Shown: in pieces, positions 5,100 through 51,684 of the stretch | How positions within the stretch are numbered: position 1 is the stretch's first letter | Layout of the letters: every line of letters begins with the position of its first letter | Origin: a virus | DNA length: 64,000 nt | IMG/VR virus record: IMGVR_UViG_3300030329_006034 | Coordinates: 1-64,000 of that record | Direction: 5' to 3' (one strand) | The notes under the pieces: model-generated | Database searches by the model: none | What the model was told of the DNA's origin: nothing | What the model saw: only the letters and a program-made list of their open reading frames with translations | Program-made: the position numbers and the translations under genes

Positions 5100-5106
5100 C
5101 CTTTAA

Positions 5107-5141
5107 ATTATATGAGTTGCGACGAGGTTTTCAACTAAATA
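5107..5141. promoter_or_regulatory. Divergent promoters: sigma70-like for queE (-) and late TAAATA for phoH (+)
   Basis: Minus: TTGAAA(5134-5129)-N16-TATAAT(5112-5107)-N7-ATG; plus: TAAATA(5136-5141)-N9-ATG. Confidence 0.65.
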
Positions 5142-5150
5142 ATAATACAT

Positions 5151-6499: not shown

Positions 6500-6505
6500 G
6501 TATAT

Positions 6506-6533
6506 ATTTTATAGGAAACCAGAAAAAAATCAA
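6506..6533 (-). promoter_or_regulatory. sigma70-like promoter of queD
   Basis: TTGATT-N16-TAAAAT-N6-ATG. Confidence 0.6.
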
Positions 6534-6585
6534 CTAAGCCGCAAGTGTTTATAGGGGTCTCCCTCGTCCAGTCTCGGTTAATTAA

Positions 6586-7176: not shown

Positions 7177-7225
7177 GCTAATATTTAGTCTTGATAATTA
7201 AATTTATAGTATATAATTATCACAT

Positions 7226-7873
7226 ATGGATCGTACTATAATTACAAAATTACCAACGGCAAATGGTAACATGCCTTTAACAGAAGAAGAAAAATTACAA
7301 GTAATTGAAGATGCAGCTGCAGCTTATGAGAAATATCTAGATGCATTGCGAATCGATTGGCGAAATGATCCTAATAGTAGTAATACCCCAAAGCGTGTAG
7401 CTAAAGCTTTTGTGAATGACTTAGCTGCTGGTTGTTATAATGATTTACCTAATGTAACTGCCTTCCCGTCTGATGGTTATGACGGAATGGTCTTTCAAGG
7501 CGGTATACCTGTTAAGTCTTTTTGTTCACACCATCACCTTCCCTTTACTGGTAGAGCTCATGTAGCTTATATTCCATCTAAAGAGGGTAAAGTTATTGGA
7601 TTAAGTAAACTTAACCGTATTGTTGAGCATTATGGTAGAAGGCCACAAATTCAAGAAGGTCTTACAATGCAAATTCATAAAGCTATTGACGAAATCTGCG
7701 AAGGTAACAAAGGAGTTGCTGTTATGATCTCTGCTACTCACACTTGCGCTTGTCTTAGAGGTATTAAACATGATGGTTGTGAAATGAAAACAAGTAGATT
7801 GAGTGAAGACTTCTTAGGTGATGTTGCTACAAGAGGTGAATTTTATCAATTCGTAAATGATTGGCAAAAATAG
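7226..7873 (+). CDS. folE: GTP cyclohydrolase I
   Basis: TPKRVAK, CSHHHLPF, GLSKLNR, RPQIQE, HTCACLRG. Confidence 0.95.
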   Translation: MDRTIITKLPTANGNMPLTEEEKLQVIEDAAAAYEKYLDALRIDWRNDPNSSNTPKRVAKAFVNDLAAGCYNDLPNVTAFPSDGYDGMVFQGGIPVKSFCSHHHLPFTGRAHVAYIPSKEGKVIGLSKLNRIVEHYGRRPQIQEGLTMQIHKAIDEICEGNKGVAVMISATHTCACLRGIKHDGCEMKTSRLSEDFLGDVATRGEFYQFVNDWQK

Positions 7874-7883
7874 AGGAACAGTA

Positions 7884-8324
7884 TTAGTAATCTACCTCGT
7901 CTTCGCGACTAGCGATGTTTTCTTGACTAACATCGATAAGAGCATCAAGCTCATTTTCAATAAAATCTTTACTTACTAAGATTTTATATAGGTTAGAAGT
8001 TCTATTACCAATAGAAAATGGTATATCTCTAAACTCCTTGTTACCAATTTTAAGATCAAAATTAACAACTGGTCTTTCCTCTGTATTACCAGCACCTACA
8101 TTAATAATAATGTCGTCTACTTTATCTTTCATTAGACGTTTATTGTTTACTGTCTTAAAATGAACCTTGTTACCTTGTACTTGTATATCTTCACCGTGAA
8201 TAACATTAAATGCACCGTTACCGGAGTCCAGCTTTGATGGAATTTTACCAACACCATCTACATCAAAGAACTCTATGAGCCCTAAGACTTGTTTTTCGAT
8301 AAAAAATTGTTTAAACTTCTTCAT
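7884..8324 (-). CDS. Retropepsin-like protease (RimK-associated 'ATP-dependent Zn protease' family)
   Basis: KLDSGNG catalytic-type motif, ERPVV, NR...ILV; N-terminus MKKFKQFFIE. Confidence 0.7.
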   Translation of the reverse strand: MKKFKQFFIEKQVLGLIEFFDVDGVGKIPSKLDSGNGAFNVIHGEDIQVQGNKVHFKTVNNKRLMKDKVDDIIINVGAGNTEERPVVNFDLKIGNKEFRDIPFSIGNRTSNLYKILVSKDFIENELDALIDVSQENIASREDEVDY

Positions 8325-8348
8325 AGCAACTGCTACTTACGAGTGCGG

Positions 8349-8768
8349 TCATGTGTTTCCTACTTCTTCGTACCCTACGTTAAATTGATCTACGGGTACT
8401 TCTATTTCTTGTATATCAATTACAATGTCTTCCTTTTCATTCGTTTCGTAATCCAAATAATGGAACACAGAAGAGAGATAATCAGCTGCTTTTGTAATTT
8501 TAGAAGCAACCCAACCATCTAACCCTGGGAGTGTTGGTACTATTTCACTTAATTTAGCAGCATAGTCCTGTGCTTTAAGCAACTCCCTACTAGCCATATC
8601 AATTTCTGACTTATCATACTCACCGCAGCTTTCTTCATCAGAAGGAATAGCAATTATAGGTCCTTGAGCTCCAATTGACGCAGTTTGTCCAGCTGGCCCT
8701 ATGTTTTCATTTACTTTTTGGTAAGCTTCTTCCATTAAGGCTCGTTCTCTACGCTTCTGATCTCTCAT
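8349..8768 (-). CDS. Hypothetical late protein
   Basis: 139-aa ORF with LDGWVASKITKAADYL helix; TAAATA 5 nt upstream. Confidence 0.65.
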   Translation of the reverse strand: MRDQKRRERALMEEAYQKVNENIGPAGQTASIGAQGPIIAIPSDEESCGEYDKSEIDMASRELLKAQDYAAKLSEIVPTLPGLDGWVASKITKAADYLSSVFHYLDYETNEKEDIVIDIQEIEVPVDQFNVGYEEVGNT

Positions 8769-8772
8769 ACTA

Positions 8773-9393
8773 TTATTTAGTCAAAATATGACTTAAGCCC
8801 TCTGCATCTACATGATCTAAATTAGGTACATACCTCTTAAGCAATTCTATATCTCTAGGATTTTTTCTTATATCTCCTGCGTTTAGCGCCTGATCACCCG
8901 TTGTAGTAACATTAACAGCAGTTTCCTCGGGATCTAATACTTTGACATCTATATTATTTTTTTCCACCCACGCTGGAGCAGATTTAAATTTCGCCCAATC
9001 TGGAACCCCCTTATCATCTGGTTTTTTGCTAGCACCTAACACTGCAACAGTTCCCGGTTCTAAATCTCTTAAAGCCTCAAAAGCTACTCCAACAGGAGAT
9101 GCCTCCGGTGATATATCAATTTCAACATTGTGTAAATGACTTGTATAATACTCAAAAATCTCTTTAGCTACTTGTGGTGTTATTTCCTTACCGTCTGCTG
9201 TATAGCGGATTTTTGCTGGCCCAGGTTTAGAAATTAATACCTTAATCTTACCCTGAGGGTATTGTTTACTATATTTTTCTACCATTTCATAATGACCTCT
9301 ATGTGGAGGTTTAAAGCTACCCGGTACGAATACTACTACATCTTGTGAACCAGCAGTCTCTTCATCTTGAAAATATTCTTTAAATGTTCTCAT
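8773..9393 (-). CDS. HxGH (cytidylyltransferase-like) nucleotidyltransferase
   Basis: PGSFKPPHRGH motif, C-terminal NAGDIR (SxTxxR-like). Confidence 0.8.
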   Translation of the reverse strand: MRTFKEYFQDEETAGSQDVVVFVPGSFKPPHRGHYEMVEKYSKQYPQGKIKVLISKPGPAKIRYTADGKEITPQVAKEIFEYYTSHLHNVEIDISPEASPVGVAFEALRDLEPGTVAVLGASKKPDDKGVPDWAKFKSAPAWVEKNNIDVKVLDPEETAVNVTTTGDQALNAGDIRKNPRDIELLKRYVPNLDHVDAEGLSHILTK

Positions 9394-10748
9394 GATCCAG
9401 GTTTTCCTGTTGCAAAGTTAGCTGCACTAAAATCTAACCGGTTTACAAGCTTAATAGGACCTGCATCACCGGCATTACTAACAGCGACGTATCCTTCAGG
9501 GTTTGTTACCTTCAGTACTCCATCTCCCTCATCGAGAAAATGCTTAGTGTTATAAACAGCATTGTCATATTTGTTAATAAAGATCTGTTTTGCCTGCGCT
9601 AAAAGGCTGCTTACTTTAAACAGATTAATAAAATTATCTCTTTGAGATTCAAATTCATTTATTTTAAGCTGTAAATTATCTTCCTTCTGTTGTTGTGCAT
9701 TTGCTTGTGCAGCAGTTTTAATTTCTTCTGGACTTTTCCATTTTTTCTGCTCTCTTTCCTTATACCAATCAATAAAGTCTCTATATGATTTTTCCGGATC
9801 CCTTATAAACTCTGGCGTCGGAACACCGTCTTTCTGACGCCTAAGCTCCGTGTTTAGATAAATTTTAATAAATTCCAACGGGAGGTCATTATAATTCACC
9901 TGTAATGTATCAGCAGTTTTAATTATATCCTTAATTTGTTTTGCTTCATCTTCAGTTAAGGATACCTGCCCTGTTAGTTCCTTAAAATAGGCATCATCAA
10001 CCCATAGACCTGGAACGTCTTTAAACTTTTTAACTATCCCCGTGGCCATCGGTCCCCATTTGTTAGAGTGCTGCTCTTTTTTTCCTAAAACTTTAGGAAA
10101 TTCTTCTGGTTTTCCGTGGAACTGGGTGTGAAACACAATACCAACCCCGTCATCTCTTATTTTGTCAGTTATTTGCCCACCAAGCTCTGAGTTAACCGGG
10201 ACAGCATATTTGATCGTATTCGGTTTAAACGTGTAGTGAGGCTCTCCGTCTATATCCTCAGGCTCCCCAACTAACTCTCGCCAAAACATATAATCACCCC
10301 ACAATACGTTATTACCCATCCCTAATTTTGGAAGTAATCTTAAAGCTTGTTTAAGCTTATCTGGTAGATCCGGCATTTTTTCACCCTCTTCATCGACACC
10401 ATCTTCTTCTTCCCGGGCCGGATGATTATAATCAATATCAGCTTCAGTATAGTTAATTTTAGGTTCCTTATTAAAGATAGACTTTGTTGCAACAAAGAAT
10501 TTACCGTTTACTGGATGTTTACCAGCAAAAATAGCAGGGGCCCCGTCCCATTTTACCGAAGTATTTATTTTTCTCTTACTTTTTCCCTGTAGATGACTGA
10601 GTAAGTTAGCTAAAGCCGTTCTAGCTTGGTCATAACCCTCTTGGCCTCTAAGAAGAACCAATTCTTCGAGGTGATCAATGTGACCAGGCTTACTCGCAGC
10701 CTCGGCAAGTAAGACATAATTTTCGAAATATAGTTTAAAGCTTTTCAT
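9390..10748 (-). CDS. Ligase-like nucleotidyltransferase-fold protein (DUF6267-like)
   Basis: HIDHLEE, VKWDGAPA (KxDG), FFVATKS, WGDYM, PEGYV, IKLVNR. Confidence 0.6.
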   Translation of the reverse strand: MKSFKLYFENYVLLAEAASKPGHIDHLEELVLLRGQEGYDQARTALANLLSHLQGKSKRKINTSVKWDGAPAIFAGKHPVNGKFFVATKSIFNKEPKINYTEADIDYNHPAREEEDGVDEEGEKMPDLPDKLKQALRLLPKLGMGNNVLWGDYMFWRELVGEPEDIDGEPHYTFKPNTIKYAVPVNSELGGQITDKIRDDGVGIVFHTQFHGKPEEFPKVLGKKEQHSNKWGPMATGIVKKFKDVPGLWVDDAYFKELTGQVSLTEDEAKQIKDIIKTADTLQVNYNDLPLEFIKIYLNTELRRQKDGVPTPEFIRDPEKSYRDFIDWYKEREQKKWKSPEEIKTAAQANAQQQKEDNLQLKINEFESQRDNFINLFKVSSLLAQAKQIFINKYDNAVYNTKHFLDEGDGVLKVTNPEGYVAVSNAGDAGPIKLVNRLDFSAANFATGKPGS

Positions 10749-10749
10749 T

Positions 10750-12267
10750 TTAGTAATATTCTATTTCCTCTTCTTCTATTTCGTCTATTTCTTCAGTCTC
10801 TTGTACGGGTTGTTGCACGTTAACTGATGTTGGCGTCATCCCAGCATAGCTACTCCCAAAGCCAATTCTAGGCCTAAGGTTAGATCTCCCAACCTTTTCA
10901 AATTTAACGCCTTGACCTGGGTTGTTAGCTGATGCTAGTAATCCCAGAGCCATCTGAAGAGGATTACCACTAACAAAAACATATCTACCGGTATTATCAC
11001 CCTTGGTACCAAAATCATGCGCCATAAAGTGCCCAAATCCTTCATCTTCAGCATATTCAATAAAATTAAGCAAGCCTATTCCATTTTGTATAGATGCTGG
11101 ATTACTTAAATCAAAAAGTCCTTTAGATTTTAATCGTTGGTAGTATGTATCAGTAGCTGTAAGCTCACCACTCTCTTTTAAGAAGGTTTTAAATATATCT
11201 TCAAACTTTTTTTGCTTTCTTGGGTCCGGACCAATCATCTCGTATGCTTTAGCTATAGCTATGGGCAAATTATTTAGACCGTCAACCCAGTCTTCTTCCG
11301 TTGGTCCAACTTGATACCCGTCTCCTGACTCACGAAACTCAACGTCGGCAACCTCTCCCATTTTGGCTAAACTTGCCGCTGTATGGCCTTTATGTTTATT
11401 ACTAATCTTATCCGGTCTCTCCCCCAAAGTAGCTCCCTCGCCTTTAATCTCAAACTCCACTCCATCTATTTCCAGATCACCCTTAACCTTTTCTTTCTTT
11501 GCGTTAGATAGGGCTACATGTGCTGCATCGAGATCGGTATATTCTGGCTCAGCTCCTGCCTCTTCAGCAGTCTTATTTGCTAATTTTATTCTCTCCTTAA
11601 TACCTCCTATAGTTAATTTATCTTTATGTCCTCTTGGTAGACTTGCGTTTAACTTCTTTTGTTCCTCTTTAGCATCGTTATATGCCTTTTGAGCCGCCGC
11701 CACTCTACCCTTTCTCTGCTGACCTCCTGCACTTACGTCTCCAAATATTAACGCTAGTGCGAGCTCACCCATTCCAACACCACGTCCACCTTCGTCTTGA
11801 CCAGTATGCTTCATAATAGCAGCAACCAAATCACGGTCTAACCCACCTCCTATTACGTCAAATATATTCATTTCCTCAATCTGTGTAGTTGGGAAGTTTA
11901 TTTGTGCTTCTGGTCTATTTAAATATTCTATAAATTGATCCCGTTGTTCTTTAGGTATGTTTACTAGTAACTGTTGGACGTCATTACTAAATTTCTTAAA
12001 TATTAACGGACTATATCCTTTACCGCTTAACGACTTTTTAATATTTTTATATGTAGGGAAATTATAAATCTGGTTGAGTAAATATTGTGCTTCCTTTATA
12101 TCTTCTAGCTTTAATCCGTCAATCGCTTGTTGAATCTCTGCCTTTAAGGCATCTATATCCGGTTCTGCTTGCTCTTCTACATCCTCTCCTAACACGCGAA
12201 GATGTCTACGCGGTGGAACATTACCACGTACCTGCTGACTATAAATTTTTTCTAATGACCACTGCAT
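10750..12267 (-). CDS. Putative PD-(D/E)xK nuclease-domain protein
   Basis: GMGELAL...KGDLEIDGVEFEIKG pattern. Confidence 0.45.
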   Translation of the reverse strand: MQWSLEKIYSQQVRGNVPPRRHLRVLGEDVEEQAEPDIDALKAEIQQAIDGLKLEDIKEAQYLLNQIYNFPTYKNIKKSLSGKGYSPLIFKKFSNDVQQLLVNIPKEQRDQFIEYLNRPEAQINFPTTQIEEMNIFDVIGGGLDRDLVAAIMKHTGQDEGGRGVGMGELALALIFGDVSAGGQQRKGRVAAAQKAYNDAKEEQKKLNASLPRGHKDKLTIGGIKERIKLANKTAEEAGAEPEYTDLDAAHVALSNAKKEKVKGDLEIDGVEFEIKGEGATLGERPDKISNKHKGHTAASLAKMGEVADVEFRESGDGYQVGPTEEDWVDGLNNLPIAIAKAYEMIGPDPRKQKKFEDIFKTFLKESGELTATDTYYQRLKSKGLFDLSNPASIQNGIGLLNFIEYAEDEGFGHFMAHDFGTKGDNTGRYVFVSGNPLQMALGLLASANNPGQGVKFEKVGRSNLRPRIGFGSSYAGMTPTSVNVQQPVQETEEIDEIEEEEIEYY

Positions 12268-40261: not shown

Positions 40262-40282
40262 TATAGTTGTATAGAATATGAA
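40248..40282 (+). repeat. 35-bp direct repeat, copy 1
   Basis: GAACGGAACTATAATATAGTTGTATAGAATATGAA; 33/35 identical to 40847-40881. Confidence 0.9.
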
Positions 40283-40844
40283 CATTGATAGGTTTATCTT
40301 AAAAGATAGTAGTCCCAATACAATGGAATTACAATTTAACTCTCAAATACAACAAGATAAGTGGATTTGTCAAGTGCTTGAAAATCTAAAAAACGGAACA
40401 TGGGTCGATATAGGTTGTGGAGCTCCAATATATATCAATAATACTTACGTACTAGAAAATCAGCTAGGATGGAAAGGAATATCATTAGATCTCGATAAGA
40501 GTTCAACTGATCAATGGAGAGAAGTAGGTAGAGATACTAAAATGGTCTTTAATCAAGATGCTTTAACTACTGATTATAAAAAATTATTTGAAGAATGTAA
40601 TATGCCTAAAGTTATAGATTATCTTTCTCTAGATCTTGAACCTCCGCAGTTAACATTACAGGCGTTATATAAAATACCTTTTGATGATTATAAGTTTAAG
40701 TGTGTAACTTATGAAACTGATGTTTATCGAACTCTAGAAACAGTTGAGCCTTCAAGAAAGCTTTTTGCAGAAAAAGGCTACATTTTAGTTCAAGAGATGG
40801 GTAGTCAAGATGACTTTTATATACATCCTGATTGCGTTAATTAG
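40278..40844 (+). CDS. FkbM-family methyltransferase
   Basis: SQIQQD, VDIGCG, NNTY.LE...W.G, IDYLSLDLE, DDFY. Confidence 0.85.
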   Translation: MNIDRFILKDSSPNTMELQFNSQIQQDKWICQVLENLKNGTWVDIGCGAPIYINNTYVLENQLGWKGISLDLDKSSTDQWREVGRDTKMVFNQDALTTDYKKLFEECNMPKVIDYLSLDLEPPQLTLQALYKIPFDDYKFKCVTYETDVYRTLETVEPSRKLFAEKGYILVQEMGSQDDFYIHPDCVN

Positions 40845-40846
40845 TA

Positions 40847-40881
40847 GAACGGAACTATAATATAATTATATAGAATATGAA
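40847..40881 (+). repeat. 35-bp direct repeat, copy 2
   Basis: GAACGGAACTATAATATAATTATATAGAATATGAA. Confidence 0.9.
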
Positions 40882-41110
40882 AAATTTTAAATTTAATTTA
40901 AAAGATGGTAGTACCAAAACAATGGAATTTGATGAACTAGTTCGTTGGGCGTGTTTAATTGAAGCTCTTGAAGTAGTTGGCGGTCAAGAAGACGTAGATG
41001 TAGATAGTGATAAATGGATTAAACCCTTAGCTTTCCAAAAGTATATCGACGAAAGATATCACTCTATGAGACATGACCTTAAGGTTGAGGCTTCTTTAGG
41101 TAATTTGTAA
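40877..41110 (+). CDS. Hypothetical protein
   Basis: 77-aa ORF. Confidence 0.6.
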   Translation: MKNFKFNLKDGSTKTMEFDELVRWACLIEALEVVGGQEDVDVDSDKWIKPLAFQKYIDERYHSMRHDLKVEASLGNL

Positions 41111-41111
41111 G

Positions 41112-43421
41112 CTAAGACTGTATAATTGTTATTTCGTTTCCGTTTTCGAGGTTAAAAGTCTCTCGTAGTGGGAGTTGTGAAATTAGTTCTATAAAGTCCG
41201 GTTTATATCTTTTCATATTTTTTTCCCAACGAATTGCCCAACATGAAATAATTGTGTTGTTAATTTCTGCGAAAAGTGGGTATAATCTACACGGAGCCGG
41301 TTCCCAGTCCGGAGCATCGTTTATTTCCGCACTAATGTAATATTTTTCCCAATTAAAATTTTTATTTAACTTAATATTTAATGTCCCTGGGTAAGGTAAT
41401 TCTTCAGTGTATGTAGCTATATCTATTATTCGCGAATTATCATTTCTAACAAACGCTTTAGACGCGCCGCCTGCACCGCTTCTAACTGTCCCGGTATAAA
41501 TTACCTTGGGCTGCTCTAATATAAAATATTCTGATTTTTCTTTTAAAACAGAATATCTTTTTAAGAGATTTTTCCACTTCGGGACATTTTTATGATGTCT
41601 AGTAGGTTGATCATAGCACTTTAAAGCGTTCATTTTCTGTTCATAAACTTCATCTGTTAATTTAAACTCTGTACCGGAGCCATAACCAAAAAATAACTTT
41701 GGCACGTTTGGGATATTTGCTACGACCCACTTATGAATAAATTTATGATGTTTATGACCATATTCACCTGCTTCAGAATGCGTTACAATTAAGTCGTATT
41801 TTGATATCATATCAATTAACATATCTGGCATCTCCAAGGTAGTAGATTTTTTAACTTCGACGAATGGCAGTGACATTGCATTTGTAATACCTAAGGTGTT
41901 TGCAGCTCTAATATAACAAACAGACCGGACTTTATCTTCAATATCAGCAGGAACAGAGCAAGTTAAGCTATCCCACGTTTTATCTGGGTTCGACGCAATT
42001 AAACCACCGGCCCAACATGTTTCATCATCTGGATGAGCTCCTATAACTAGTATTCGCTCCGCAGCATTAATAATATTATTAATTTTTGGTTTTTGAATTT
42101 TGGTGTATACGGTTAACGATTCATAATCATGAGATCTTTTAAACAGCCCTGAGTCGTCTACCAGTTGATGTGCAATTTTACCTTTATTTGATTTTTTAAA
42201 CATTATCATTTTACCGTCATCTTTTAGCATTGTATATAATGTTTCAATTAATTTAATATCTGTCGTTTGCCCGTAGTCCTCAATATCTTTACCTCTTTTA
42301 CTACAATATTTTTTGCTATATTCACAAAGGTGAAAATTCGTAATAATATCAAAATTATTTAAAAAAGGTGCTGTATTTAAGGTATACATGTCCCCATAAA
42401 ATGCTTTATACTTGAGACATAATTCCGGATCTGTCTGTAACATATTCATATATTCCTGATATTCTTTAATCGACGCAGTAATACCTAATATATTGTGATT
42501 TCTAAGATTATCGCCTACCATATGGTGACCACCGGTGCCGATATGAAATATAGATAGATCGCTAGTGTTTAAGGACGCCACGTAATCAATAAAATGCTTA
42601 TCACATGGGCATCTTTTATAATCAAATTTACACGATTTATTATATGTGTTAAATTTTTTAATAGGAGGCGGTATCTCTACATTTTTTTTATTTTTTACCG
42701 TATTTAATACATGAAGCACATCCTTTGTGTGCTTGTCATCAAAAGTCCAATTTTCTTTAATGAATCTTTTGTCTCTTAATTCGTGTTGTTTAGGGTTACC
42801 ATGAAAGTAGACATATCGAGCTGCTGGTGGAATTCCTGCGTCGAAGTCACCTTCGTTACAGTGCTTTTTATAGCTTACTAGTTGACCCGGTGTTACGTCA
42901 TCCCATAGAGCATCTGGTTTTACGTAATCATTAAGCCAGAACATTTCTGAAAACTGACCCTTTAAAAAATATTTTCTGTTATGAATGTCGTCGTTTTTGT
43001 TCTTTAACCACGTATTCCAGACGTAGTCAGCTTTATCTGAATTTAAAGAGACGAAACCATTGCAAAGCTTACATAAACGCCCGGGATTACGAGGGACAAT
43101 GTAAGATTCTTGCCGGTGTTCTATGTCTTCTGGTGACTTAATAAATAACCCATCGAGATCCATTATTATAGCACGTTCTTTAACGATTTCAGGTCTATAC
43201 ATTTCTAACTTGCAACACCAACCTCTTTCTGAGTTTATAAAAGGATATGTTTGAATTTCCGGAAGAAAGCCACTTTCAAAATCAGTAACTACACTTAAGG
43301 TGGAGTCTGGAGACCATTTTTTAATGTTTGAGTAGAGAGAATTTACCCACTGCGGGTTATATCCCGCTCCGAAATCTCGAAACTTAGAGGGTCTTTTAAA
43401 TAATGTGGTTACGTAATTCAT
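41112..43421 (-). CDS. Four-domain fusion: GT-A glycosyltransferase + SAM methyltransferase-like + PIG-L/LmbE deacetylase + CTP-dependent riboflavin-kinase-like
   Basis: GWCCKL/MDLDG/FHGNPK; FHIGTGG/GD/FDII; AHPDDE/GEYGHKHH; GTVRSGAG/PYPGTLNI/IELIS..PLR..L..G. Confidence 0.75.
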   Translation of the reverse strand: MNYVTTLFKRPSKFRDFGAGYNPQWVNSLYSNIKKWSPDSTLSVVTDFESGFLPEIQTYPFINSERGWCCKLEMYRPEIVKERAIIMDLDGLFIKSPEDIEHRQESYIVPRNPGRLCKLCNGFVSLNSDKADYVWNTWLKNKNDDIHNRKYFLKGQFSEMFWLNDYVKPDALWDDVTPGQLVSYKKHCNEGDFDAGIPPAARYVYFHGNPKQHELRDKRFIKENWTFDDKHTKDVLHVLNTVKNKKNVEIPPPIKKFNTYNKSCKFDYKRCPCDKHFIDYVASLNTSDLSIFHIGTGGHHMVGDNLRNHNILGITASIKEYQEYMNMLQTDPELCLKYKAFYGDMYTLNTAPFLNNFDIITNFHLCEYSKKYCSKRGKDIEDYGQTTDIKLIETLYTMLKDDGKMIMFKKSNKGKIAHQLVDDSGLFKRSHDYESLTVYTKIQKPKINNIINAAERILVIGAHPDDETCWAGGLIASNPDKTWDSLTCSVPADIEDKVRSVCYIRAANTLGITNAMSLPFVEVKKSTTLEMPDMLIDMISKYDLIVTHSEAGEYGHKHHKFIHKWVVANIPNVPKLFFGYGSGTEFKLTDEVYEQKMNALKCYDQPTRHHKNVPKWKNLLKRYSVLKEKSEYFILEQPKVIYTGTVRSGAGGASKAFVRNDNSRIIDIATYTEELPYPGTLNIKLNKNFNWEKYYISAEINDAPDWEPAPCRLYPLFAEINNTIISCWAIRWEKNMKRYKPDFIELISQLPLRETFNLENGNEITIIQS

Positions 43422-43987
43422 TCGTATTTTACAATTGTTATTTTATTTCTTATTGATTGTAGCCAAGTTTGTTCGAGCTCCGGTCTATGGAACCGGCTAT
43501 TTTTTTTGCCTCCAGGTCTGCAGGGCCAGGTTCTCGACTTAAGTCCATCAAATCCAAATACTGTAGATGATGCTGGGTGAAAAATAGTCATAAGCGCATG
43601 CACCGTTGTAGCCCCTGTTGTAGGTTCCTTATAAATTAGATTTTTACACTCTTTTACTGCCTTAACCGGTAAGTGATATTCTACGTGTTTTGAACGACGC
43701 GTCGACATTATAAGTGACTTATAATGTCGCCGTTGTATGCTGTTCCAAAGCCACTGCATTTTATATGTTTTTCTTAGTAATGACATCGCACAAATCATAA
43801 TATCTGTGCGGTTTCCGAGACTCTCTGATAGCTCTGGTATAGGAAATTGAAAATTAAATCTAATAACAACGTCGTGTTCATCAATCCACGATCCATCCTT
43901 TTTTTCTATAATTTTTTCACAATTTCCAACAACAGCAACACTTTTCCCATCAATTAAATGAGATGCATATGTTAAATCCTTACTCAT
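43418..43987 (-). CDS. GT29 sialyltransferase-like protein
   Basis: VAVVGN...IDEHDVVIRFN...LGNRTD (sialylmotif L), PTTG...FGFD (S), H-x4-E (VS). Confidence 0.75.
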   Translation of the reverse strand: MSKDLTYASHLIDGKSVAVVGNCEKIIEKKDGSWIDEHDVVIRFNFQFPIPELSESLGNRTDIMICAMSLLRKTYKMQWLWNSIQRRHYKSLIMSTRRSKHVEYHLPVKAVKECKNLIYKEPTTGATTVHALMTIFHPASSTVFGFDGLKSRTWPCRPGGKKNSRFHRPELEQTWLQSIRNKITIVKYE

Positions 43988-44667
43988 TAATACGGGGCTA
44001 ATGAATCTATAGGCTCTTTTCTAGCTATGTTAATTTCTGATTCAACAGGAGAAAAGTTAACCAGGTCAATATTGAGTTTTTCGCAGCTTTCTAAAGCTAA
44101 TTTAAATTTGTCCTTTAAGCGTGTAGCTCCAAGACGGAGAGGATCCGGGGTACTGTACGAACCGTAGAAAGAATCTGCTTCTAAATTTTTGAAGAAGTTC
44201 TCACCCCACTCTTGTATACTTGACTCTGTTTTATTGCAAAATTGATTCTGTAAATTGGGTCTCTTTGCTTGGTTCCACTTTTCAACCTTAGCTGGGTTGT
44301 AGTCGTGATCAAATCCTAAGAGACAAATCTTTTCTGGACGTAGCGACATCATTATCCAGTATAACCCCATAAAAAATATAGTGTACCCGCAATGATGCTG
44401 CGGTGACTTAATATCCCAATTAAAATAATTTTTTGCGTCTTCAGCTGTTTTAGCGTATTCGTGAAATCCTACTTCTGTTCCAAATTTAAATTCACCTGGC
44501 TTAGGCTTTTGTTCTGATGGAAAATCTCCAGAACGTATCCAAGCATCGACTGGGTGATTTCTAAATAACCTCCATGCATTATTTACACAACATACTGCAT
44601 AATCATCAAGACTTACCGCGTCAACGAGTTTGGCTGAATTACCGCTTCCTACATATAATACTTTCAT
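43987..44667 (-). CDS. Sialyltransferase/MptE-like fold protein
   Basis: YVGSGNS, CVNNAW, LLGFDHDY, LVNFS. Confidence 0.5.
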   Translation of the reverse strand: MKVLYVGSGNSAKLVDAVSLDDYAVCCVNNAWRLFRNHPVDAWIRSGDFPSEQKPKPGEFKFGTEVGFHEYAKTAEDAKNYFNWDIKSPQHHCGYTIFFMGLYWIMMSLRPEKICLLGFDHDYNPAKVEKWNQAKRPNLQNQFCNKTESSIQEWGENFFKNLEADSFYGSYSTPDPLRLGATRLKDKFKLALESCEKLNIDLVNFSPVESEINIARKEPIDSLAPY

Positions 44668-45494
44668 AACTTTAACTCTCTTTTAACTTCTTTAATAAAA
44701 TCTTCCGGTATTACATCTTTAAACTGCTCAATAACAAGATTAGTATCTAATCCCACTTCTTGATGACCGATCATATAGTTTCTGAATCGATCTTTAAGAT
44801 CGTTTCGATATGGCACCCCGTCAGGTCTATCAAATCTATGGTTCCATCTTAAGAAAGGCAAGCACATTACTTTCTTACCATGTTTTCTGTATTTTTCATG
44901 AATATACCCCTCTTCACCACCAAACCCTCTAAAGTTAGAATTAAAGCCTAGCCAACTATCTTTACGACATGTAAACAATCCTAATCCTTGCGCTTCTATT
45001 TCAAATGGGTCACTATTAGCATATTCACCTCTTGTATCCACGCCCCATTCACCCCACATATGTGCACCCCACTTACTTAAATTGAAGTGTGTACTATAAC
45101 TTTTTAAGTCATCGTAGAGCAAAGGACCATGTAGTAAATTTCCATCATCTTTCCCACTATCGTAATAATCTAAAAGTTTCTTTAACGCGCCGTTTTCAAT
45201 TAACACGTGACAATCCATTACTAACACGTATTCTGTGTTTGCTAAATCAAATATCTTTGATCGCAATGCTGTGGATTGAAAGTTATCGTATTCAATATAT
45301 GTTGTGGGCTCTTTAATCCAGTTTTTAAAATTATAAAGCGCTTTACCCTGATTAGAGTTAGGGTTGTTATTAATAATAACGAACTCTAGCCTGTCTAGTA
45401 TATCCCTGTTATGTAATCTTGCTGATTGTAAGGTAAAATATGCCCCGTCGTAGTCATCGTATACACATATACCAATAGTAAGTTTGCCTGTCAT
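44664..45494 (-). CDS. Glycosyltransferase family 2
   Basis: GICVYDD, IINN, VMDCHV, GLGLF, FRGFGGEE. Confidence 0.8.
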   Translation of the reverse strand: MTGKLTIGICVYDDYDGAYFTLQSARLHNRDILDRLEFVIINNNPNSNQGKALYNFKNWIKEPTTYIEYDNFQSTALRSKIFDLANTEYVLVMDCHVLIENGALKKLLDYYDSGKDDGNLLHGPLLYDDLKSYSTHFNLSKWGAHMWGEWGVDTRGEYANSDPFEIEAQGLGLFTCRKDSWLGFNSNFRGFGGEEGYIHEKYRKHGKKVMCLPFLRWNHRFDRPDGVPYRNDLKDRFRNYMIGHQEVGLDTNLVIEQFKDVIPEDFIKEVKRELKL

Positions 45495-45507: not shown

Positions 45508-48500
45508 CTAAAACTTTAGAACATTGCAACGAGGTCCTCCTCTAGATTCCGGTGGACATATTGTTGTCGGGGGCGGTGGTGTAGTTACCGTTGTCGTTGT
45601 CACCGTCGGTGTTGTAGTCGGGGTTGTAGTCCGCCGGCGACGACGCGTCGTTGAAGGAATCGGTGGAAAGACCGGATCTCCACCACCGACAACAATTATT
45701 GGGGGCCTTGTAACTGGTGGGTTTGGCGGCCCAATGGGTTGTCCTCCAGGGGTGTCATCCGTTGGTGGGCATGGGCAACATTCGCACATTTCCCAACCTA
45801 AACCTTTATCTTTTGGCTCGAGATCTTTGGTACGAAGCTTTGCTGGCTTCTTTTTATTTTGCGGATTCATTGCAGGATCATTAACATGCATTAAAACGTC
45901 AATTGCTGGATTAAGCATAGGATTAGCATTAACAAAATCTGCATTAATAATTTTAAAACAAATCGGTCGGCATGCTTCTCTACAATCTTCATCAAAATTT
46001 TTCGCAACGTCTTCCAGGCCTCCCTCCCAGTTTTCTTCTTCCTCTTCAGAAATTACACCGTCGTTGTTTGCGTCCTTCTTTCTGTTTGGATCAAATACAA
46101 CTTCACCGTCTTCATTTTTAAACTGCTTTAACCGGTCGCCATCCTTTATATCGCCTATAGTAAGCTCGTTGCCTGGTTTAACAGCATTCCAATTTTCATC
46201 GTTTTCTATTAAACGCTCTCTAGCCAATGCGTCGTTTATATCTTGGCGCGCTCTTTCTGGATCTGCTAATAGGTTATCAAACCTATTTAACGCCCAATCT
46301 GGTCGCTCGAGATCTTCAGGCGGCACGCCACCGTGAATTTCTTGCAACCTTCTCTCTTGCGATAATAAGGTTCGCAATTGATCTTCTTGTTGAGGAGCTA
46401 ACCAGTCCTCGTTTTCAACAATTTGTTGTATAAGACCACCCACATTACCTTTAGCAATATTGTAATCTATTCGTGCCTGATTTAATCTCCCTTGTGCTTC
46501 ATCTAGTTTTTCCTGTGCTGCTTCTGCCCCTGCAGACCCGGCTGGTTCTTCAGCAAGCGCCTCTTCTGCTTTTTTTACCGCTGCCAAGGCATCTCTTCCT
46601 TCTTGTAGTGCGTCTTCAATAACGTCATCAACAAATCCCTCAGCACCAAACGGTGGATCAGTGCAGCAGTATTTTATTACAGTACCTTCTTCCACCTCAA
46701 CCGGAAACTTGTCATTATCAGGAATGCCATCTTCATCTTTATCCTCCAGATCACGTACTATCTTTATACGCTGTATAGTCCACCTACCCGGCTCTACCTT
46801 TATAATTCTTATACCTCTAATCTTCCTATCAGGGTTATTCGGATCAGTAACCTTTACGCTTTCGAGTTGTCTTCTTATTTCTGCTCTTCGAGCTACTGCA
46901 GCGTCAGAATCACCACGTGGAACACTAATATTTTCAGGATCCGACCATTCCCCTTTGAAAGCCGGTTCAAATTTAACAAAGCCGAGATCAACAAAGACGT
47001 TATTGTTTCTTGCTTTCCAATACCAGCATAGATTACAGTTTGTTGGCGGGCAACACGGGCAACATTCACACTCTCTCCATCCGAGTCCTCTATCAACTTC
47101 TCCATCGCCGTCTGTATCGTCATCTGGTAATTCGCCATTTTCTCTAATATCTTCTGACGGTCTAGTATCCTTATTTTGATTTACCCACTCTGCATCATGA
47201 ATTTTAAAACACCTTCTCTTGTCCTCATCAAGGTATTCCGCTTTCCATTGTTCGAGACGTGCCCATAGGTCATTTGCTTGTTCTGGTGTTATATAACCTT
47301 GATTAACAGTGAACTGAACCATCGATCGCGCTTTAAACAGATCATTTTCTAACAACGCACCAGCGACGTCAAACTCACTACGATCCGGATCTTCATCCAT
47401 TCCTTCATGACGAAGTTGGTTTGGAAAAACCCCAGGTGCGAGTCCTTCCGCGTAAGTTTTTGCTTCAAATTCGGGCCCTTCCCAAAACACTAGTCCGTTT
47501 TCTGCTGTCCCGTCAAACGGTCTTAAGTAGTTGTCCCGAGCATTATCCCAAAACCACATTGCTAGTCTTTCTGCTGGAGGCGCGCATTCCGGAACACAGC
47601 ACGGTGTTGTGGTACTTGTAGAAGTTGATGTTGATGTACTCGTACTAGTAGATGTAGATGTACTAGTTGAAGTAGAAGTTGAAGTAGAAGTTGATGTTGT
47701 AGTAGTTACATCATCCTTATCTGGGCAACATTCGCAATATTCCCATCCCCCAGCTGCATGACCGGCTTCGACAGGATTTTCTAGACCATTATATCCAATT
47801 GGTATTTCATTATCCCAGTGTCCTTTACCAAAGCGATCTTCTACTGATTGCTCGTTATCAAATTGATAAGCTGCAGCAACTAGCTCTGCTGGTGATCTAT
47901 CTAAATTTTGTCGTACAAGATCTTCATTAACAATCTTGTAACACTGCCCGTCACTATCATCTAAACACTTTTCCCATTCTATGCCAGCGCTATTATTATC
48001 CTTTACTACAAGTACAGCTGTTGGAGTAGCAGCCCACTCCCCGTTAAAGTCATCCTCTGTTGCCTGCTTTTTATCCGCCCCCGTAGCAGCGAGCTCAATA
48101 TATATATTTTTATAATTGCCTTGTTTTACCTCTTCTTTGGTAGCTGTTTCTTTTTCAAAGTACCATTCACCTTTCGGCGGGCAACACTTAGGACACGGTG
48201 TAGTAGTTGACGTGGTCGTAGGTGGACTCGTAGTAGATGTACTAGTTGATGTTGTGGTTGTAATGTCTGGTTTTCCCGGTGGTTTTTTCTTGCAGCAACG
48301 ACATTCTTTCCACACTGCAGAACTTAAACTCGGATCAATACACGCTGGGTCTTCCTGTTTAGGGTTATAAGATTCAGCAGAACCATCACTATTAGATTGA
48401 CTACTTTCTCGGGAATTATACAGAGCTTCCCAATTAATTAGCCGATAGCACTTTCCATTATGTTTTATAACTATTCCCTTCTTAGCAGCTTTTTCAAGCT

Positions 48501-51500
48501 CTTCCTTATTAATAGTACCATCTTCATTCATGACACCGGGAAAAGCATCCAGAAAATTTCCTTCTGTTGGTGGGTCGCCTTCACCGTCCCATCCTTCATT
48601 TTCGTCCCGGATCTGCCGAACTTCTCCATCAACTTCTGGTCCTGTTCCCACCGGTGCACCTACGTTAACCGGTTCAGTTCTCTCAACTTCACCTGGCTCG
48701 TTAGGATCCGGATCAGCCGGCGCCTCAGGATCCGGATCATCTGGCTCAATAGGCTTGCTCTTCTGCCTTTCGTCATTAATACCGGGTACTGGATCTTGTC
48801 CCGGCACAACGACATCATCTCCCTCGCCCGGCTGGCTCGCCGGTTCGAACCACCTCTCAATCGCCCCGAGTGCGATTCCTATTCGCGCACCATCTTCTGG
48901 AACGTCACGGAATAAACCGCCACTCTCCCAACCATCATTAGGTCTATGAAAAACAAGATAAGGGTCACGATCATCGGCGAATAAACGAGCGTCTAATGAT
49001 GCATTCTTGGCATTTGAAAGTTCTACAGTGATACCCAAGTTATTATCAAAGACAACATCTATAATATTGCCTTTATTGTCCCGAGTAATAGTCATAGGAA
49101 TTCCACGTTCATCGGGCCCGGGAAGGAGAGCCCCTCCAAGAGCGTCAAAACTTCGATGTCTCCATTGGCTCACCCCGAGACCGGGTAACCCTTCTCGGTT
49201 AATCCTCTCAACCTCGGCACCACTTCTTCCAACCAAATGTTGTTGTTCTGGATGTCTAAATAAAACTCTTTCTTGTCGCGATTGTCCTTGGTTACGCACA
49301 TTGCGTTTAGCTTTAGGATTTTGTAACGCACCTGGTCCTCTAACACTAACGGTTACAGGACTTCTTTGTTGTGTGCCAGTTGGTTGCTGTCGTGAAGTTG
49401 CAACTAGTGTATAAGTGTTATCGGCATTTAGTTGAGCGTGTAATTCCTGCGTAACAACTACATTTTGCCCACCTCCACCTTCAAACAGGCCTTGAAAGTT
49501 AGATGCGTTTTGTTGCTGTACCTTATTATAGGCGGTGTAGTTATTAGGTGGTGACGTTCCATAAGTATTAGGCGGAAAAGTCGTACCTGCCTCCTCCGGT
49601 GGCATCGTCGTACTATCCTCATCCGGTGGCATCGTCGTACTATCTGTGCTATAATTTGGTGCAGTATTTGTATTGAGATCTTCTAAAGGATCTCCTGTTG
49701 GTGGGTTATGTGTCCACCCTAACTGCTCGAGCTCTAAATGCTGCTTAAAAGTAGTAGTATATATTCCGTACCCCTCAGCATCATACATGTAATGCGGTGT
49801 AAAGGTCACTTGTGTGTAGACAGGATCATTTGCTGAACTTTGTGACTTTGATGGAGCAGGAGTTGATGGTGCCGGAGCCCGAGGAAACGGCGTTGCCTCT
49901 ACATTTGGATTTGGTGTAGTTGTCCGCGTTGTGGGTCGCGGTGGCATTGTTGGCATAGGCCCGGGCTCAAATGGATCCGGTGTTGTAGGTGCAATCGGTC
50001 TTCTTGTTGTAGTTGTAGTAGTAATAGGCTCCGGAGCTGAAGTAGTAGTAGTAACATCATCGGGCTCGGTCACCGTAGGTGAAACACTTGGCTTACCTGT
50101 TGAGATATCAACTGTGCGCAGTTTATGCACCTTACTATCTGTCTGTACGCTAAGGCTCTCCATAGCCTCATTGATCTTACTCTGTGTTTCAGAATTACCG
50201 TAAAATGGACCCTCTAAATTTGTGGTATGTGTTTCAATTAAAATGGGCGTGTCTTCAGTATATATAAATGCTGGTCCACTACTATCACCCTTTCCTAACC
50301 CTTCCCTTAGATTACCGTCGTACTCATCAGCGTATTCATCTGGAAGAGAGGTATATAAGACCACTTTTTCTCCTGCTTTTCCCAGCCTATTCGCGGCTTG
50401 AAAGCTTACTACTTTTGGAAGTGTTTTTCTCTCTTGATCGATTACAACAACATATGCGCCTGTTAACTCTTTATTGTATCCACCTACCGGCCGTGGTTCT
50501 GGTACAGGGTAGATTTCAGTATTTTCGACCGGTGCATTAAGAATACCGACGCTAATATCTGCACCTTGTAGCGGCTCGACCGCTACGATAGTACGTGTAA
50601 CTCGCTCGCCGCTATTGTTAATAAAGTTAACAGTGTTACCAGGCATACGTAAATCCCAGTGCTTCGACATTACAAAGTGAGTAGGTGAAACTAAAGTTAC
50701 AGCTTTTTTGTACCCGGGCGTTGGATATGAGGGAGCTTTTTCACTAACTCCAGAGAGATTTACCTTGCTATTAAGATCTGGTAAGATTGATAGGAGTAAT
50801 GTGTTTATTTCTTTTGATACTGTATCGTCGGCTGTTGGTTTTTGAAGCCGGGGATCCACCGTGGTTTTATCGGTATCAAAACTATCAACATCTGAAGTGG
50901 TATTGTACGTAGTCGATCCGGATCCGGATCCAGTATAAATACTAGTATCGACAGTAGAATTGCGTACTATTAACTCCTCAAAGGTTATAGACCAGTCTTC
51001 TGATGTATCTACTATAAAGCTATCTATACTATCCGGGTAATAATATGTCGTCCCAGCTGCAGTATCAACCCTAACTCTATTTGGATTCTTCGAGTCGTAG
51101 CTTTCGTAATCTACATCATATGATTCACCTTCATAACCTTTAAAAAAAGCCGACCCTAGCATCGCGAAGTATTTTTTTAAATTCGGGCCTTTATTTAGTG
51201 TTGTGTCTTTGCCAGACTTAGGATTATTCCAGTACCAGGGACCTGTAGGCCAACAGCATGTTGTTGTACTAGTTGAAGTTGAAGTTGACGTTGATGTACT
51301 TGTACTTGTACTAGTTGATGTAGATGTACTAGTTGAAGTTGAGGTTGTAGTAGTTACATCATCACATTCACAGCAAATCTCTATACAGCATCCGCAGCTT
51401 TCTATTAGTAAATATAAGTCTGATCCTGGATCGCTAGGATTTATTCGGGCTGGAATCGCATCATTAATTCCTTGCCTGTCCTTTAGGATGACTGAAAGGA

Positions 51501-51684
51501 AAGGTGTAGTTGCGTTTTTTTTGTATATCTTATATAACGGCCCGCCTCCGGATACTGATGTTATTTTGATCGTTCCCTCTTTACAATTACACTCGTATTT
51601 TACCGTTACTGTGTCATTAGAACATTGTCCGGGATTGCTGTTACAATCACTACTCGAGTTACTAGCTGAACTATCATTAGCCAT
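45508..51684 (-). CDS. Giant Cys-rich, mucin-like (Thr/Ser/Pro) protein with trypsin-like serine protease domain; probable virion protein
   Basis: 2058 aa; (TS)n tracts; four CC..W[YF][WF]...C[YF][KR]...W..C.CC modules; TLVSPTH...H, DISVG, GDSSGP. Confidence 0.75.
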   Translation of the reverse strand: MANDSSASNSSSDCNSNPGQCSNDTVTVKYECNCKEGTIKITSVSGGGPLYKIYKKNATTPFLSVILKDRQGINDAIPARINPSDPGSDLYLLIESCGCCIEICCECDDVTTTTSTSTSTSTSTSTSTSTSTSTSTSTSTTTCCWPTGPWYWNNPKSGKDTTLNKGPNLKKYFAMLGSAFFKGYEGESYDVDYESYDSKNPNRVRVDTAAGTTYYYPDSIDSFIVDTSEDWSITFEELIVRNSTVDTSIYTGSGSGSTTYNTTSDVDSFDTDKTTVDPRLQKPTADDTVSKEINTLLLSILPDLNSKVNLSGVSEKAPSYPTPGYKKAVTLVSPTHFVMSKHWDLRMPGNTVNFINNSGERVTRTIVAVEPLQGADISVGILNAPVENTEIYPVPEPRPVGGYNKELTGAYVVVIDQERKTLPKVVSFQAANRLGKAGEKVVLYTSLPDEYADEYDGNLREGLGKGDSSGPAFIYTEDTPILIETHTTNLEGPFYGNSETQSKINEAMESLSVQTDSKVHKLRTVDISTGKPSVSPTVTEPDDVTTTTSAPEPITTTTTTRRPIAPTTPDPFEPGPMPTMPPRPTTRTTTPNPNVEATPFPRAPAPSTPAPSKSQSSANDPVYTQVTFTPHYMYDAEGYGIYTTTFKQHLELEQLGWTHNPPTGDPLEDLNTNTAPNYSTDSTTMPPDEDSTTMPPEEAGTTFPPNTYGTSPPNNYTAYNKVQQQNASNFQGLFEGGGGQNVVVTQELHAQLNADNTYTLVATSRQQPTGTQQRSPVTVSVRGPGALQNPKAKRNVRNQGQSRQERVLFRHPEQQHLVGRSGAEVERINREGLPGLGVSQWRHRSFDALGGALLPGPDERGIPMTITRDNKGNIIDVVFDNNLGITVELSNAKNASLDARLFADDRDPYLVFHRPNDGWESGGLFRDVPEDGARIGIALGAIERWFEPASQPGEGDDVVVPGQDPVPGINDERQKSKPIEPDDPDPEAPADPDPNEPGEVERTEPVNVGAPVGTGPEVDGEVRQIRDENEGWDGEGDPPTEGNFLDAFPGVMNEDGTINKEELEKAAKKGIVIKHNGKCYRLINWEALYNSRESSQSNSDGSAESYNPKQEDPACIDPSLSSAVWKECRCCKKKPPGKPDITTTTSTSTSTTSPPTTTSTTTPCPKCCPPKGEWYFEKETATKEEVKQGNYKNIYIELAATGADKKQATEDDFNGEWAATPTAVLVVKDNNSAGIEWEKCLDDSDGQCYKIVNEDLVRQNLDRSPAELVAAAYQFDNEQSVEDRFGKGHWDNEIPIGYNGLENPVEAGHAAGGWEYCECCPDKDDVTTTTSTSTSTSTSTSTSTSTSTSTSTSTSTSTTTPCCVPECAPPAERLAMWFWDNARDNYLRPFDGTAENGLVFWEGPEFEAKTYAEGLAPGVFPNQLRHEGMDEDPDRSEFDVAGALLENDLFKARSMVQFTVNQGYITPEQANDLWARLEQWKAEYLDEDKRRCFKIHDAEWVNQNKDTRPSEDIRENGELPDDDTDGDGEVDRGLGWRECECCPCCPPTNCNLCWYWKARNNNVFVDLGFVKFEPAFKGEWSDPENISVPRGDSDAAVARRAEIRRQLESVKVTDPNNPDRKIRGIRIIKVEPGRWTIQRIKIVRDLEDKDEDGIPDNDKFPVEVEEGTVIKYCCTDPPFGAEGFVDDVIEDALQEGRDALAAVKKAEEALAEEPAGSAGAEAAQEKLDEAQGRLNQARIDYNIAKGNVGGLIQQIVENEDWLAPQQEDQLRTLLSQERRLQEIHGGVPPEDLERPDWALNRFDNLLADPERARQDINDALARERLIENDENWNAVKPGNELTIGDIKDGDRLKQFKNEDGEVVFDPNRKKDANNDGVISEEEEENWEGGLEDVAKNFDEDCREACRPICFKIINADFVNANPMLNPAIDVLMHVNDPAMNPQNKKKPAKLRTKDLEPKDKGLGWEMCECCPCPPTDDTPGGQPIGPPNPPVTRPPIIVVGGGDPVFPPIPSTTRRRRRTTTPTTTPTVTTTTVTTPPPPTTICPPESRGGPRCNVLKF
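47605..47706 (-). repeat. Coding (Thr-Ser)n low-complexity tract
   Basis: TTTTSTST...TTT with varied synonymous codons. Confidence 0.9.
49595..49644 (-). repeat. 23-bp coding direct repeat (DSTTMPP x2)
   Basis: TCCGGTGGCATCGTCGTACTATC at 49595 and 49622. Confidence 0.85.
51259..51355 (-). repeat. Coding (Thr-Ser)n low-complexity tract
   Basis: TTTTSTST...TTT with varied synonymous codons. Confidence 0.9.

Follow-up and report, generated by a model that had tools for sequence, protein, structure and literature searches.

The 64,000-nucleotide stretch analysed here (the window) covers positions 1 to 64,000 of the IMG/VR virus record IMGVR_UViG_3300030329_006034, and this analysis concerns one of its genes, P0001, whose product joins four enzyme-like domains in a single chain. 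P0001 lies on the minus strand at window positions 41112-43421 as a single intact open reading frame (ORF) of 769 amino acids with an ATG start and no internal stops; its product carries, from the N-terminus onwards, a glycosyltransferase (GT) of the GT-A fold, a class I S-adenosylmethionine (SAM) methyltransferase fold, a deacetylase of the PIG-L/LmbE type and a domain with the DUF120 fold of the riboflavin kinase (RibK) that depends on cytidine triphosphate (CTP). An earlier note, made from the sequence, had proposed a four-enzyme fusion in this ORF, and every motif that it quoted is present: MDLDG (residues 87-91), FHGNPK (206-211) and FHIGTGG (292-298) in the first two domains, AHPDDE (462-467) and (G)HKHH (555-559) in the third, and GTVRSGAG (644-651), PYPGTLNI (676-683), IELIS (744-748) and PLR (751-753) in the last. 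Its approximate domain bounds agree with those of the family hidden Markov models (HMMs) built here (GT, 42744-43421; middle domain, 42069-42686; PIG-L, 41514-42068; RibK-like, 41118-41513). All four folds that it named are confirmed, by Pfam for PIG-L and DUF120 (PF01982), by PHROG 1962 and Foldseek for the glycosyltransferase, and by an AlphaFold2 (AF2) model with Foldseek for the methyltransferase. The gene and its domains are as follows.

41112-43421, minus strand: P0001, fusion of GT-A, methyltransferase-fold, PIG-L and DUF120/RibK-like domains (ORF, Pfam, PHROG and our own family HMMs)
42672-43421, minus strand: residues 1-250, retaining GT-A glycosyltransferase, GT8/GT6-like (PHROG, AF2, Foldseek)
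42087-42668, minus strand: residues 252-445, class I SAM-methyltransferase fold, the 'MID' family (AF2, Foldseek, motifs)
41514-42068, minus strand: residues 452-636, PIG-L/LmbE-type zinc de-N-acetylase (Pfam PF02585, motifs)
41115-41513, minus strand: residues 637-769, DUF120/CTP-dependent riboflavin-kinase fold (Pfam PF01982, MJ0056/taRbkR profile, Atlas model)

The N-terminal domain is matched by PHROG 1962 ('glycosyltransferase') over residues 15-231 with an E-value of 2.9e-24, and its AF2 model, with a predicted local distance difference test (pLDDT) of 91.1, has as its top Foldseek matches glycogenin (GT8), Skp1 alpha-GalT, GT6 alpha3GalT and BoGT6a, at probability 1.0 and template modelling (TM) scores of at most 0.61. 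The DxD motif of this domain is D88-L-D90, and D90 is invariant together with E159 among 28 homologues; FHGNPK is similar to the HxxGxxKPW motif of GT8. No Pfam or NCBIfam family matched residues 1-250 at E<=1, hence there is no sequence-level membership of GT8 or GT6, and a PDB sequence search with the domain gave no match. Distant relatives occur in Xanthomonas and Stenotrophomonas jumbo phages, where they are annotated as hypothetical.

Residues 458-568 identify the deacetylase domain in Pfam, where PF02585 (PIG-L) scores 37 bits (E 5.7e-9) and so exceeds its cut-off of 28.2. Its two motifs, AHPDDE and GHKHH, are invariant among the aligned relatives, and the zinc-binding and catalytic roles of the residues concerned are known from MshB. 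A stand-alone PIG-L gene of 190 amino acids on a viral contig described below (L001) is 69% identical to it.

The middle domain, MID, is assigned by structure. Its AF2 model, computed from a 54-sequence alignment, reaches a pLDDT of 92.5 and a predicted TM score of 0.90, and its top PDB matches in Foldseek are all class I SAM methyltransferases (among them CysG, NodS, UbiG and TehB; probability 1.0, TM 0.5-0.62). The per-domain Foldseek check that the earlier note had recommended thus returned, for the GT and MID models, GT-A enzymes and class I methyltransferases, respectively, in each case at probability 1.0. A fold search of BFVD with MID retrieved generic viral methyltransferases only, at identities of no more than 17%. 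No sequence family matched significantly (the best, Pfam Methyltransf_23, had an E-value of 0.041 and 14 bits against a cut-off of 27), and PDB sequence searches with MID gave no match. The motifs comprise a GxGxG-type motif I (FHIGTGGHH), a glycine followed by D344 behind strand 3, and FDIITNFHLCEY as motif IV, and nine residues are invariant in the 54-sequence family (D274, H293, G295, G297, H300, E320, Y338, D344 and H364). As separate observations, CysG, the top structural match, is a metal-dependent methyltransferase, and the family has an unusual set of invariant or near-invariant cysteine, histidine and acidic residues (C271-P-C-D274, H293, H299/H300, H364 and E367). These conserved Cys/His/Asp residues might make up a site for a metal or for the substrate.

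The C-terminal domain passes the Pfam threshold for PF01982 (CTP-dep_RFKase/DUF120) at residues 667-766, with an E-value of 2.3e-10 and 40.9 bits against a cut-off of 25, and the same family scores 45 bits in a six-frame search of the record. As a single sequence it matches the solved structure of MJ0056 at E 3.9e-6; a profile of a seven-sequence RibK-like clade matches MJ0056 (2p3m) at E 3.1e-12 and taRbkR at E 8.7e-8, and in structural comparison its ESM Atlas model fits DUF120 clusters with TM scores of 0.76-0.81. It misses the cut-offs of the NCBIfam equivalogs for RibK/RbkR by a wide distance (NF040694, 32.3 against 168 bits; PRK14165, 30.4 against 279 bits). To our knowledge DUF120 is otherwise known solely as an archaeal riboflavin kinase or regulator; the domain is not strictly archaeal, since the Atlas clusters include bacterial members, which qualifies the earlier description of RibK as mainly archaeal.

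We mapped the functional residues of taRbkR onto the viral domains through a HMMER alignment and scored their conservation over 25 close and 31 total viral copies. In taRbkR the CTP site consists of SGMGEGR, YxGTLN and KYLR, Glu195 is the proposed base, and Tyr109, Tyr115, Phe165, Pro185 and Tyr190 contact the flavin (Rodionova et al., PMC5397151). The viral copies retain the CTP-site motifs and the glutamate: the glycine loop is kept, one residue longer (SGAGGASKAF at 648-657, SGAGGAS versus SGMGEG), as are the T/S-L-N motif (PGTLN at 678-682, with N682 in 31/31) and the L-R motif (L752-R753, with R753 in 30/31), and the equivalent of Glu195, E745, is present in 28/31. The viral domains retain the flavin-binding set only in part. 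Two of its aromatic members have counterparts, Y109 in F657 and Y190 in Y739; the position of Y115 is taken by an arginine, R664, that is invariant in 25/25 close-clade copies, P185 is replaced by W or F, and F165 falls within an unalignable loop. A further position conserved in the 25 close copies is R731, and W691, W706 and W728 are conserved positions specific to the seven-sequence clade. Because the CTP-site motifs and the glutamate are kept, the tyrosine has become arginine, the equivalog scores are low and a riboflavin context is absent, the kinase fold in P0001 has probably been repurposed, and we read the domain from its alignment as a phosphotransferase that is probably active and nucleotide-dependent, and whose acceptor differs from riboflavin in being more polar or anionic. 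The earlier note's idea of a sugar or alditol kinase therefore stands as far as repurposing is concerned, which the arginine, the equivalog scores and the context make probable, while the acceptor that it named is a conjecture.

To place the fusion among its relatives, we drew on an index of 5.8 billion proteins and a profile scan of IMG/VR, and located the five modules with HMMs built for them. With the whole of P0001 as query, 1.84 billion cluster representatives yielded 1230 matches at E<=1e-3; the best 150 of these are nearly all small, single-domain proteins covering one quarter of P0001, with 31 matching the GT, 57 the middle domain, 50 PIG-L and 4 the RibK-like part alone. Relatives of nearly full length are limited, in the 5.8-billion-protein index, to P0002 and P0003-P0005. 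P0002 has 636 amino acids and 82% identity, reads GT-MID-PIG-L and ends exactly where the RibK-like part would begin; P0003-P0005 (764-795 amino acids) have a different order, namely a GT2-like domain, PIG-L, a second type of SAM methyltransferase ('MT2') and the RibK-like domain, and together with P0012 and P0021 they represent the arrangement (GT)-PIG-L-methyltransferase-RibK-like. The exact four-domain fusion is thus almost unique, and its parts are not. The earlier note did not recognise this architecture, which is no isolated oddity: it represents one way of arranging a modular toolkit that many uncultured phages possess.

The RibK-like domain was found in 19 viral loci in the IMG/VR profile scan and on one further metagenome contig, L022. 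On the viral contig L001, the most closely related phage contig, three adjacent genes carry an unrelated N-terminus with MID (51%), PIG-L (69%) and a RibK-like domain with MT2 (59% identity). These are preceded (L001:6589-9328) by a 715-amino-acid GT6 and MptE-like protein and a 194-amino-acid sulfotransferase, and the glycan made by L001 may therefore be sulfated as well. Within the close clade, PIG-L adjoins a methyltransferase-RibK fusion in six loci (L005, L007, L008, L010, L012 and L013), with a phrog_1962-type glycosyltransferase nearby in 4/6; in L009 PIG-L adjoins the RibK-like gene and a glycosyltransferase is present without MT2, and L011 has MT2 and a glycosyltransferase without PIG-L. 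L010 also encodes (9380-10990) a 537-residue fusion of MT2, RibK-like and phrog_1962-type GT domains. In the distant clade (L014-L021, 24-27% identity) the fusion partner of DUF120 is once more a class I methyltransferase, and L015:8885-11188 encodes a 768-residue fusion of a methyltransferase, two DUF120 domains and a GT2. Each viral DUF120 copy with a readable flank has a SAM methyltransferase fused or adjacent to it, and a SAM methyltransferase is the constant partner of viral DUF120.

The richest cluster lies on the phage-like metagenome contig L022 (SDBU01000399.1), where positions 5064-11423 hold three RibK-like paralogues, two MT2, MID, PIG-L and three small GT29-like genes, together with a GT2, an FkbM methyltransferase and four sugar-nucleotide dehydratases or epimerases that include a GDP-mannose 4,6-dehydratase. 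The presence of three paralogues in one cluster suggests that the RibK-like proteins have diversified, with different specificities. Directly behind this glycan module (11428-11829) is a 133-amino-acid gene whose product matches a Tad2-like (Thoeris anti-defence 2) domain at E 1e-7.

The loci share almost nothing beyond the module: an all-against-all comparison of neighbouring genes found no further family common to many of them, and their backbones differ in the genes for portal, Mu-F, SU10 capsid, tape measure and terminase, from which we conclude that the module is mobile. That its parts have been fused independently and in differing orders is Rosetta-stone evidence of the classical kind for a common pathway, and the four activities look like a portable set of tools for decorating glycans, which phages possess either as separate genes or fused in various ways. 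Other searches extended the set of relatives little. A metagenome scan with P0001 gave no match and one with P0002 gave L022 only; word-index searches aimed at short and at long RibK-like relatives gave no more than two and one proteins, respectively; and tblastn against 50,697 GenBank phage records found no RibK-like relative, with weak PIG-L matches in five jumbo phages only. A clade-profile scan of genome contigs found no cellular relative, which is weak evidence of absence given that one narrow glycine-loop pattern was used. We found no publication on phage DUF120 or RibK-like domains, on modules of LmbE with riboflavin kinase, or on the four-part module.

One may ask whether the module is real and the fusion an artefact, in which a sequencing or assembly error merged adjacent genes that natively encode at least two proteins, as they do in L001 and L022. 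In those two loci the corresponding parts are indeed separate, abutting or overlapping genes, P0002 ends exactly at the boundary between PIG-L and RibK, and the viral contig of P0001 was derived from a metagenome. The independent P0002, however, confirms two of the three junctions (GT-MID-PIG-L), and the third reads LEQ-PKV-IYTG, with a proline codon at the position where P0002 stops, and is unlike a one-base slip of the overlapping arrangement in L001; other proteins, too, carry PIG-L and a RibK-like domain in one chain. We regard an artefactual fusion as improbable.

P0001 lies at the end of a tightly overlapping minus-strand unit whose gene order is the 2058-amino-acid protein, GT2, the 226-amino-acid protein, GT29-like and P0001. 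The genes upstream of P0001 are as follows.

43418-43987, minus strand: GT29 (sialyltransferase)-like protein, 189 amino acids (Pfam PF00777, E 1e-9)
43987-44667, minus strand: protein of 226 amino acids without a family match (Pfam and PHROG searches)
44664-45494, minus strand: GT2-family glycosyltransferase, 276 amino acids (Pfam PF00535, E 2.7e-7)
45508-51684, minus strand: first gene of the unit, 2058-amino-acid protein with (Ser-Thr)n runs and Pro/Thr linkers (composition scan)

The start of P0001 shares four nucleotides (43418-43421) with the stop of the gene upstream, so that translational coupling of P0001, with which the operon ends, is probable. The 2058-amino-acid protein has (Ser-Thr)n runs of about 30 residues, at ~110-140 and ~1327-1350, and Pro/Thr-rich linkers at ~551-600 and ~2001-2050, and it matched nothing in Pfam or PHROG. 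Ser/Thr runs of this kind are O-glycosylated elsewhere, and the protein is a plausible candidate for the glycan acceptor. The local GC content at its gene (0.43-0.47) is above that of the rest of the window (~0.35). Tail-collar, fibre and baseplate genes lie upstream of the operon, and replication genes including a primase border it on the opposite side. The source is an uncultured marine phage that is distantly T4-like, with a DNA polymerase ~32% identical to its cyanomyovirus counterparts. Beyond the stop codon of P0001, an ORF of ~75 codons on the plus strand (~40879-41105) runs convergently and ends 7 nucleotides from that stop, and no hairpin resembling a terminator was detected in this gap by a simple scan. 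The 188-amino-acid neighbour on the plus strand (40278-40844) was considered as the missing MT2 and rejected, as it has no similarity.

The phage affiliation raises the question of whether P0001 modifies phage DNA or nucleotide precursors, yielding hypermodified glycosylated bases, with the kinase-like domain phosphorylating a base-linked hydroxyl or a sugar. T-even phages glycosylate their DNA and this phage is T4-like; in addition, DNA methylase genes lie near the module in three loci, one RibK-like ORF of L009 runs into a DNA-methylase-like stretch, and the replication genes border the operon. Against this, no thymidylate-synthase-type hydroxymethylase was found in the 93.8-kb record (~44% complete), and the related loci have glycan neighbours instead (GT2, GT6, GT29-like, sulfotransferase, GDP-mannose dehydratase and epimerases). 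The operon, moreover, starts with a giant Ser/Thr-repeat protein beside tail genes, and PIG-L enzymes are known for N-acetylglucosamine (GlcNAc) conjugates, not DNA. These considerations leave a DNA-directed role only a small chance of being correct.

We consider it reasonably probable that P0001 is a multifunctional glycan-building or glycan-tailoring enzyme and that its four activities constitute a portable phage module. An assembly-line enzyme acting on a sugar, as the earlier note envisaged, is the most economical reading because of the operon and the recurrent gene neighbourhoods. In the scheme suggested by the folds, the retaining GT-A domain would add an alpha-linked N-acetyl-hexosamine from a uridine diphosphate (UDP)-sugar onto a growing glycan or a Ser/Thr acceptor, and PIG-L, given its family and intact motifs, would then strip the N-acetyl group and free the amine. 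The SAM-methyltransferase-fold and DUF120 domains would decorate the sugar in the third and fourth steps, with DUF120 acting as a nucleotide-dependent, probably CTP-dependent, kinase on a non-flavin and probably polar or anionic substrate. Because the viral DUF120 copies are all coupled to a methyltransferase, an attractive version has kinase and methyltransferase working in tandem and capping the sugar with phosphate and methyl, in the manner of WbdD of E. coli O9a, a bifunctional enzyme that first attaches a phosphate to the O9a antigen's terminal mannose and next a methyl group to that phosphate (PMC3482155). Alternatively, the freed amine might be N-methylated, as in the NodB/NodS pair, with phosphorylation as an independent event. 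More specifically, viral DUF120 may constitute a hitherto unrecognised class of CTP-dependent glycan or amino-sugar kinases that, with a SAM methyltransferase (and here with PIG-L), installs phosphate or methyl-phosphate on phage-made glycans; this more detailed proposal is doubtful as it stands and is offered tentatively.

Several points weigh against the glycan-enzyme interpretation or its details. The substrate, acceptor, nucleotide and sugar, and the order of the reactions, are all things that we infer. The in-frame junction between PIG-L and RibK is known from the record of P0001 only, and its 82% relative ends exactly there; the record itself, at 93.8 kb, is ~44% complete. SAM binding by MID is suggested by fold and motifs only, and the end of its strand 2 carries no obvious acidic residue. 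The MT2 profile of the relatives does match the methyltransferase domain of WbdD (E 2e-6), as 1 of 86 generic methyltransferase matches; P0001 carries MID and not MT2, the usual partner of DUF120, and the analogy with WbdD therefore rests mainly on the relatives. Finally, the target could be the host envelope and not the virion.

One may also postulate that DUF120 is no kinase, and is instead a cytidine-nucleotide-binding module that holds a cytidine monophosphate (CMP)- or cytidine diphosphate (CDP)-linked substrate for the fused methyltransferase, or senses CTP. Its constant coupling to methyltransferases would fit such a role, as would the regulatory CTP binding of RbkR (PMC5397151) and its co-occurrence in the window, L001 and L022 with GT29-like transferases, a family that uses CMP-sugars. 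That link is limited to these three, however, with homologues beside the RibK-like genes in L022 (three copies) and L001, and GT29-like genes are absent from most other loci; no CMP-sugar synthetase was found in the record, which is ~44% complete, and E745 as putative base, the phosphate-binding GTLN and the glycine loop are all conserved as in active kinases. On these grounds a purely binding role seems unlikely to us. Least probable of all, and to our minds very unlikely, is that the domain is a true CTP-dependent riboflavin kinase merely fused to sugar enzymes and supplying auxiliary flavin mononucleotide (FMN) during infection: the Pfam threshold for PF01982 is passed, MJ0056 and taRbkR are the best solved relatives, and the CTP-site motifs, the catalytic glutamate and two aromatic flavin contacts are conserved, but the equivalog scores are far too low (32 versus 168 and 30 versus 279 bits), the flavin-contacting Tyr115 has given way to an invariant arginine in a domain with a glycine loop longer by one residue, three paralogues share one glycan cluster in L022, and those viral copies whose flank is readable lie among methyltransferases, and in the close clade also with PIG-L and glycosyltransferases, and beside no flavin genes.

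If the more detailed proposal of a glycan kinase is true, the module would parallel WbdD capping without being homologous to it, and the archaeal riboflavin-kinase fold would have its first function outside flavin chemistry, so that DUF120 would gain a second function and a new type of glycan-modifying kinase would be added. The module has been found so far in uncultured phages only and points to unexplored phage-glycan chemistry; possible roles of phage-made glycans include virion decoration, remodelling of the host surface and evasion of immunity or defence. The fused form offers a convenient single-polypeptide entry for biochemistry.

Comparison with known systems places each part of P0001 beside a familiar counterpart. 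Archaeal RibK/RbkR (MJ0056, taRbkR; PF01982, EC 2.7.1.161) is the same cradle-loop-barrel domain as the C-terminus of P0001, which keeps its glycine-rich loop, the GTLN and LR nucleotide motifs and the glutamate proposed as base. Unlike RibK/RbkR, the domain in P0001 is viral and fused to sugar enzymes, and the viral copies with readable flanks have a SAM methyltransferase as partner and never riboflavin genes or a helix-turn-helix (HTH) domain; the viral glycine loop also has an additional residue, a flavin-contacting tyrosine has become an invariant arginine, and equivalog scores fall far below the cut-offs.

A retaining glycosyltransferase followed by a PIG-L deacetylase is known from PIG-A/PIG-L of glycosylphosphatidylinositol (GPI) synthesis, from MshA/MshB of mycothiol and from BshA/BshB of bacillithiol, and P0001 has the same pairing (with AHPDDE and GHxxH in PIG-L), here in one chain. 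Its PIG-L is minimal in comparison, at ~185 amino acids, and its glycosyltransferase has a GT-A fold and is GT8/GT6-like, whereas PIG-A, MshA and BshA are GT-B enzymes of GT4. What follows downstream also differs: a methyltransferase and a kinase-like domain in P0001, cysteine ligation or mannosylation in the known PIG-L systems.

Multi-domain viral glycan enzymes are known already, whereas the use made here of the RibK fold is undescribed. A064R of chlorovirus PBCV-1 is a three-domain GT-GT-methyltransferase that builds capsid glycan, and mycobacteriophages provide a case of phage-encoded virion glycosylation. Like A064R, P0001 is virus-encoded, multi-domain and soluble, combines glycosyltransferase with methyltransferase and is encoded near structural genes; unlike A064R and the mycobacteriophage systems, which are without PIG-L or DUF120, it consists of other domain families and comes from an unrelated host and virus lineage. 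WbdD, finally, has a protein-kinase-like fold that uses ATP, whereas the kinase-like part of P0001 is DUF120, and P0001 is without the coiled-coil ruler of WbdD; the two are nevertheless analogous in uniting a kinase-like part and a class I SAM methyltransferase within one polypeptide, which for P0001 would belong to a glycan pathway as WbdD does.

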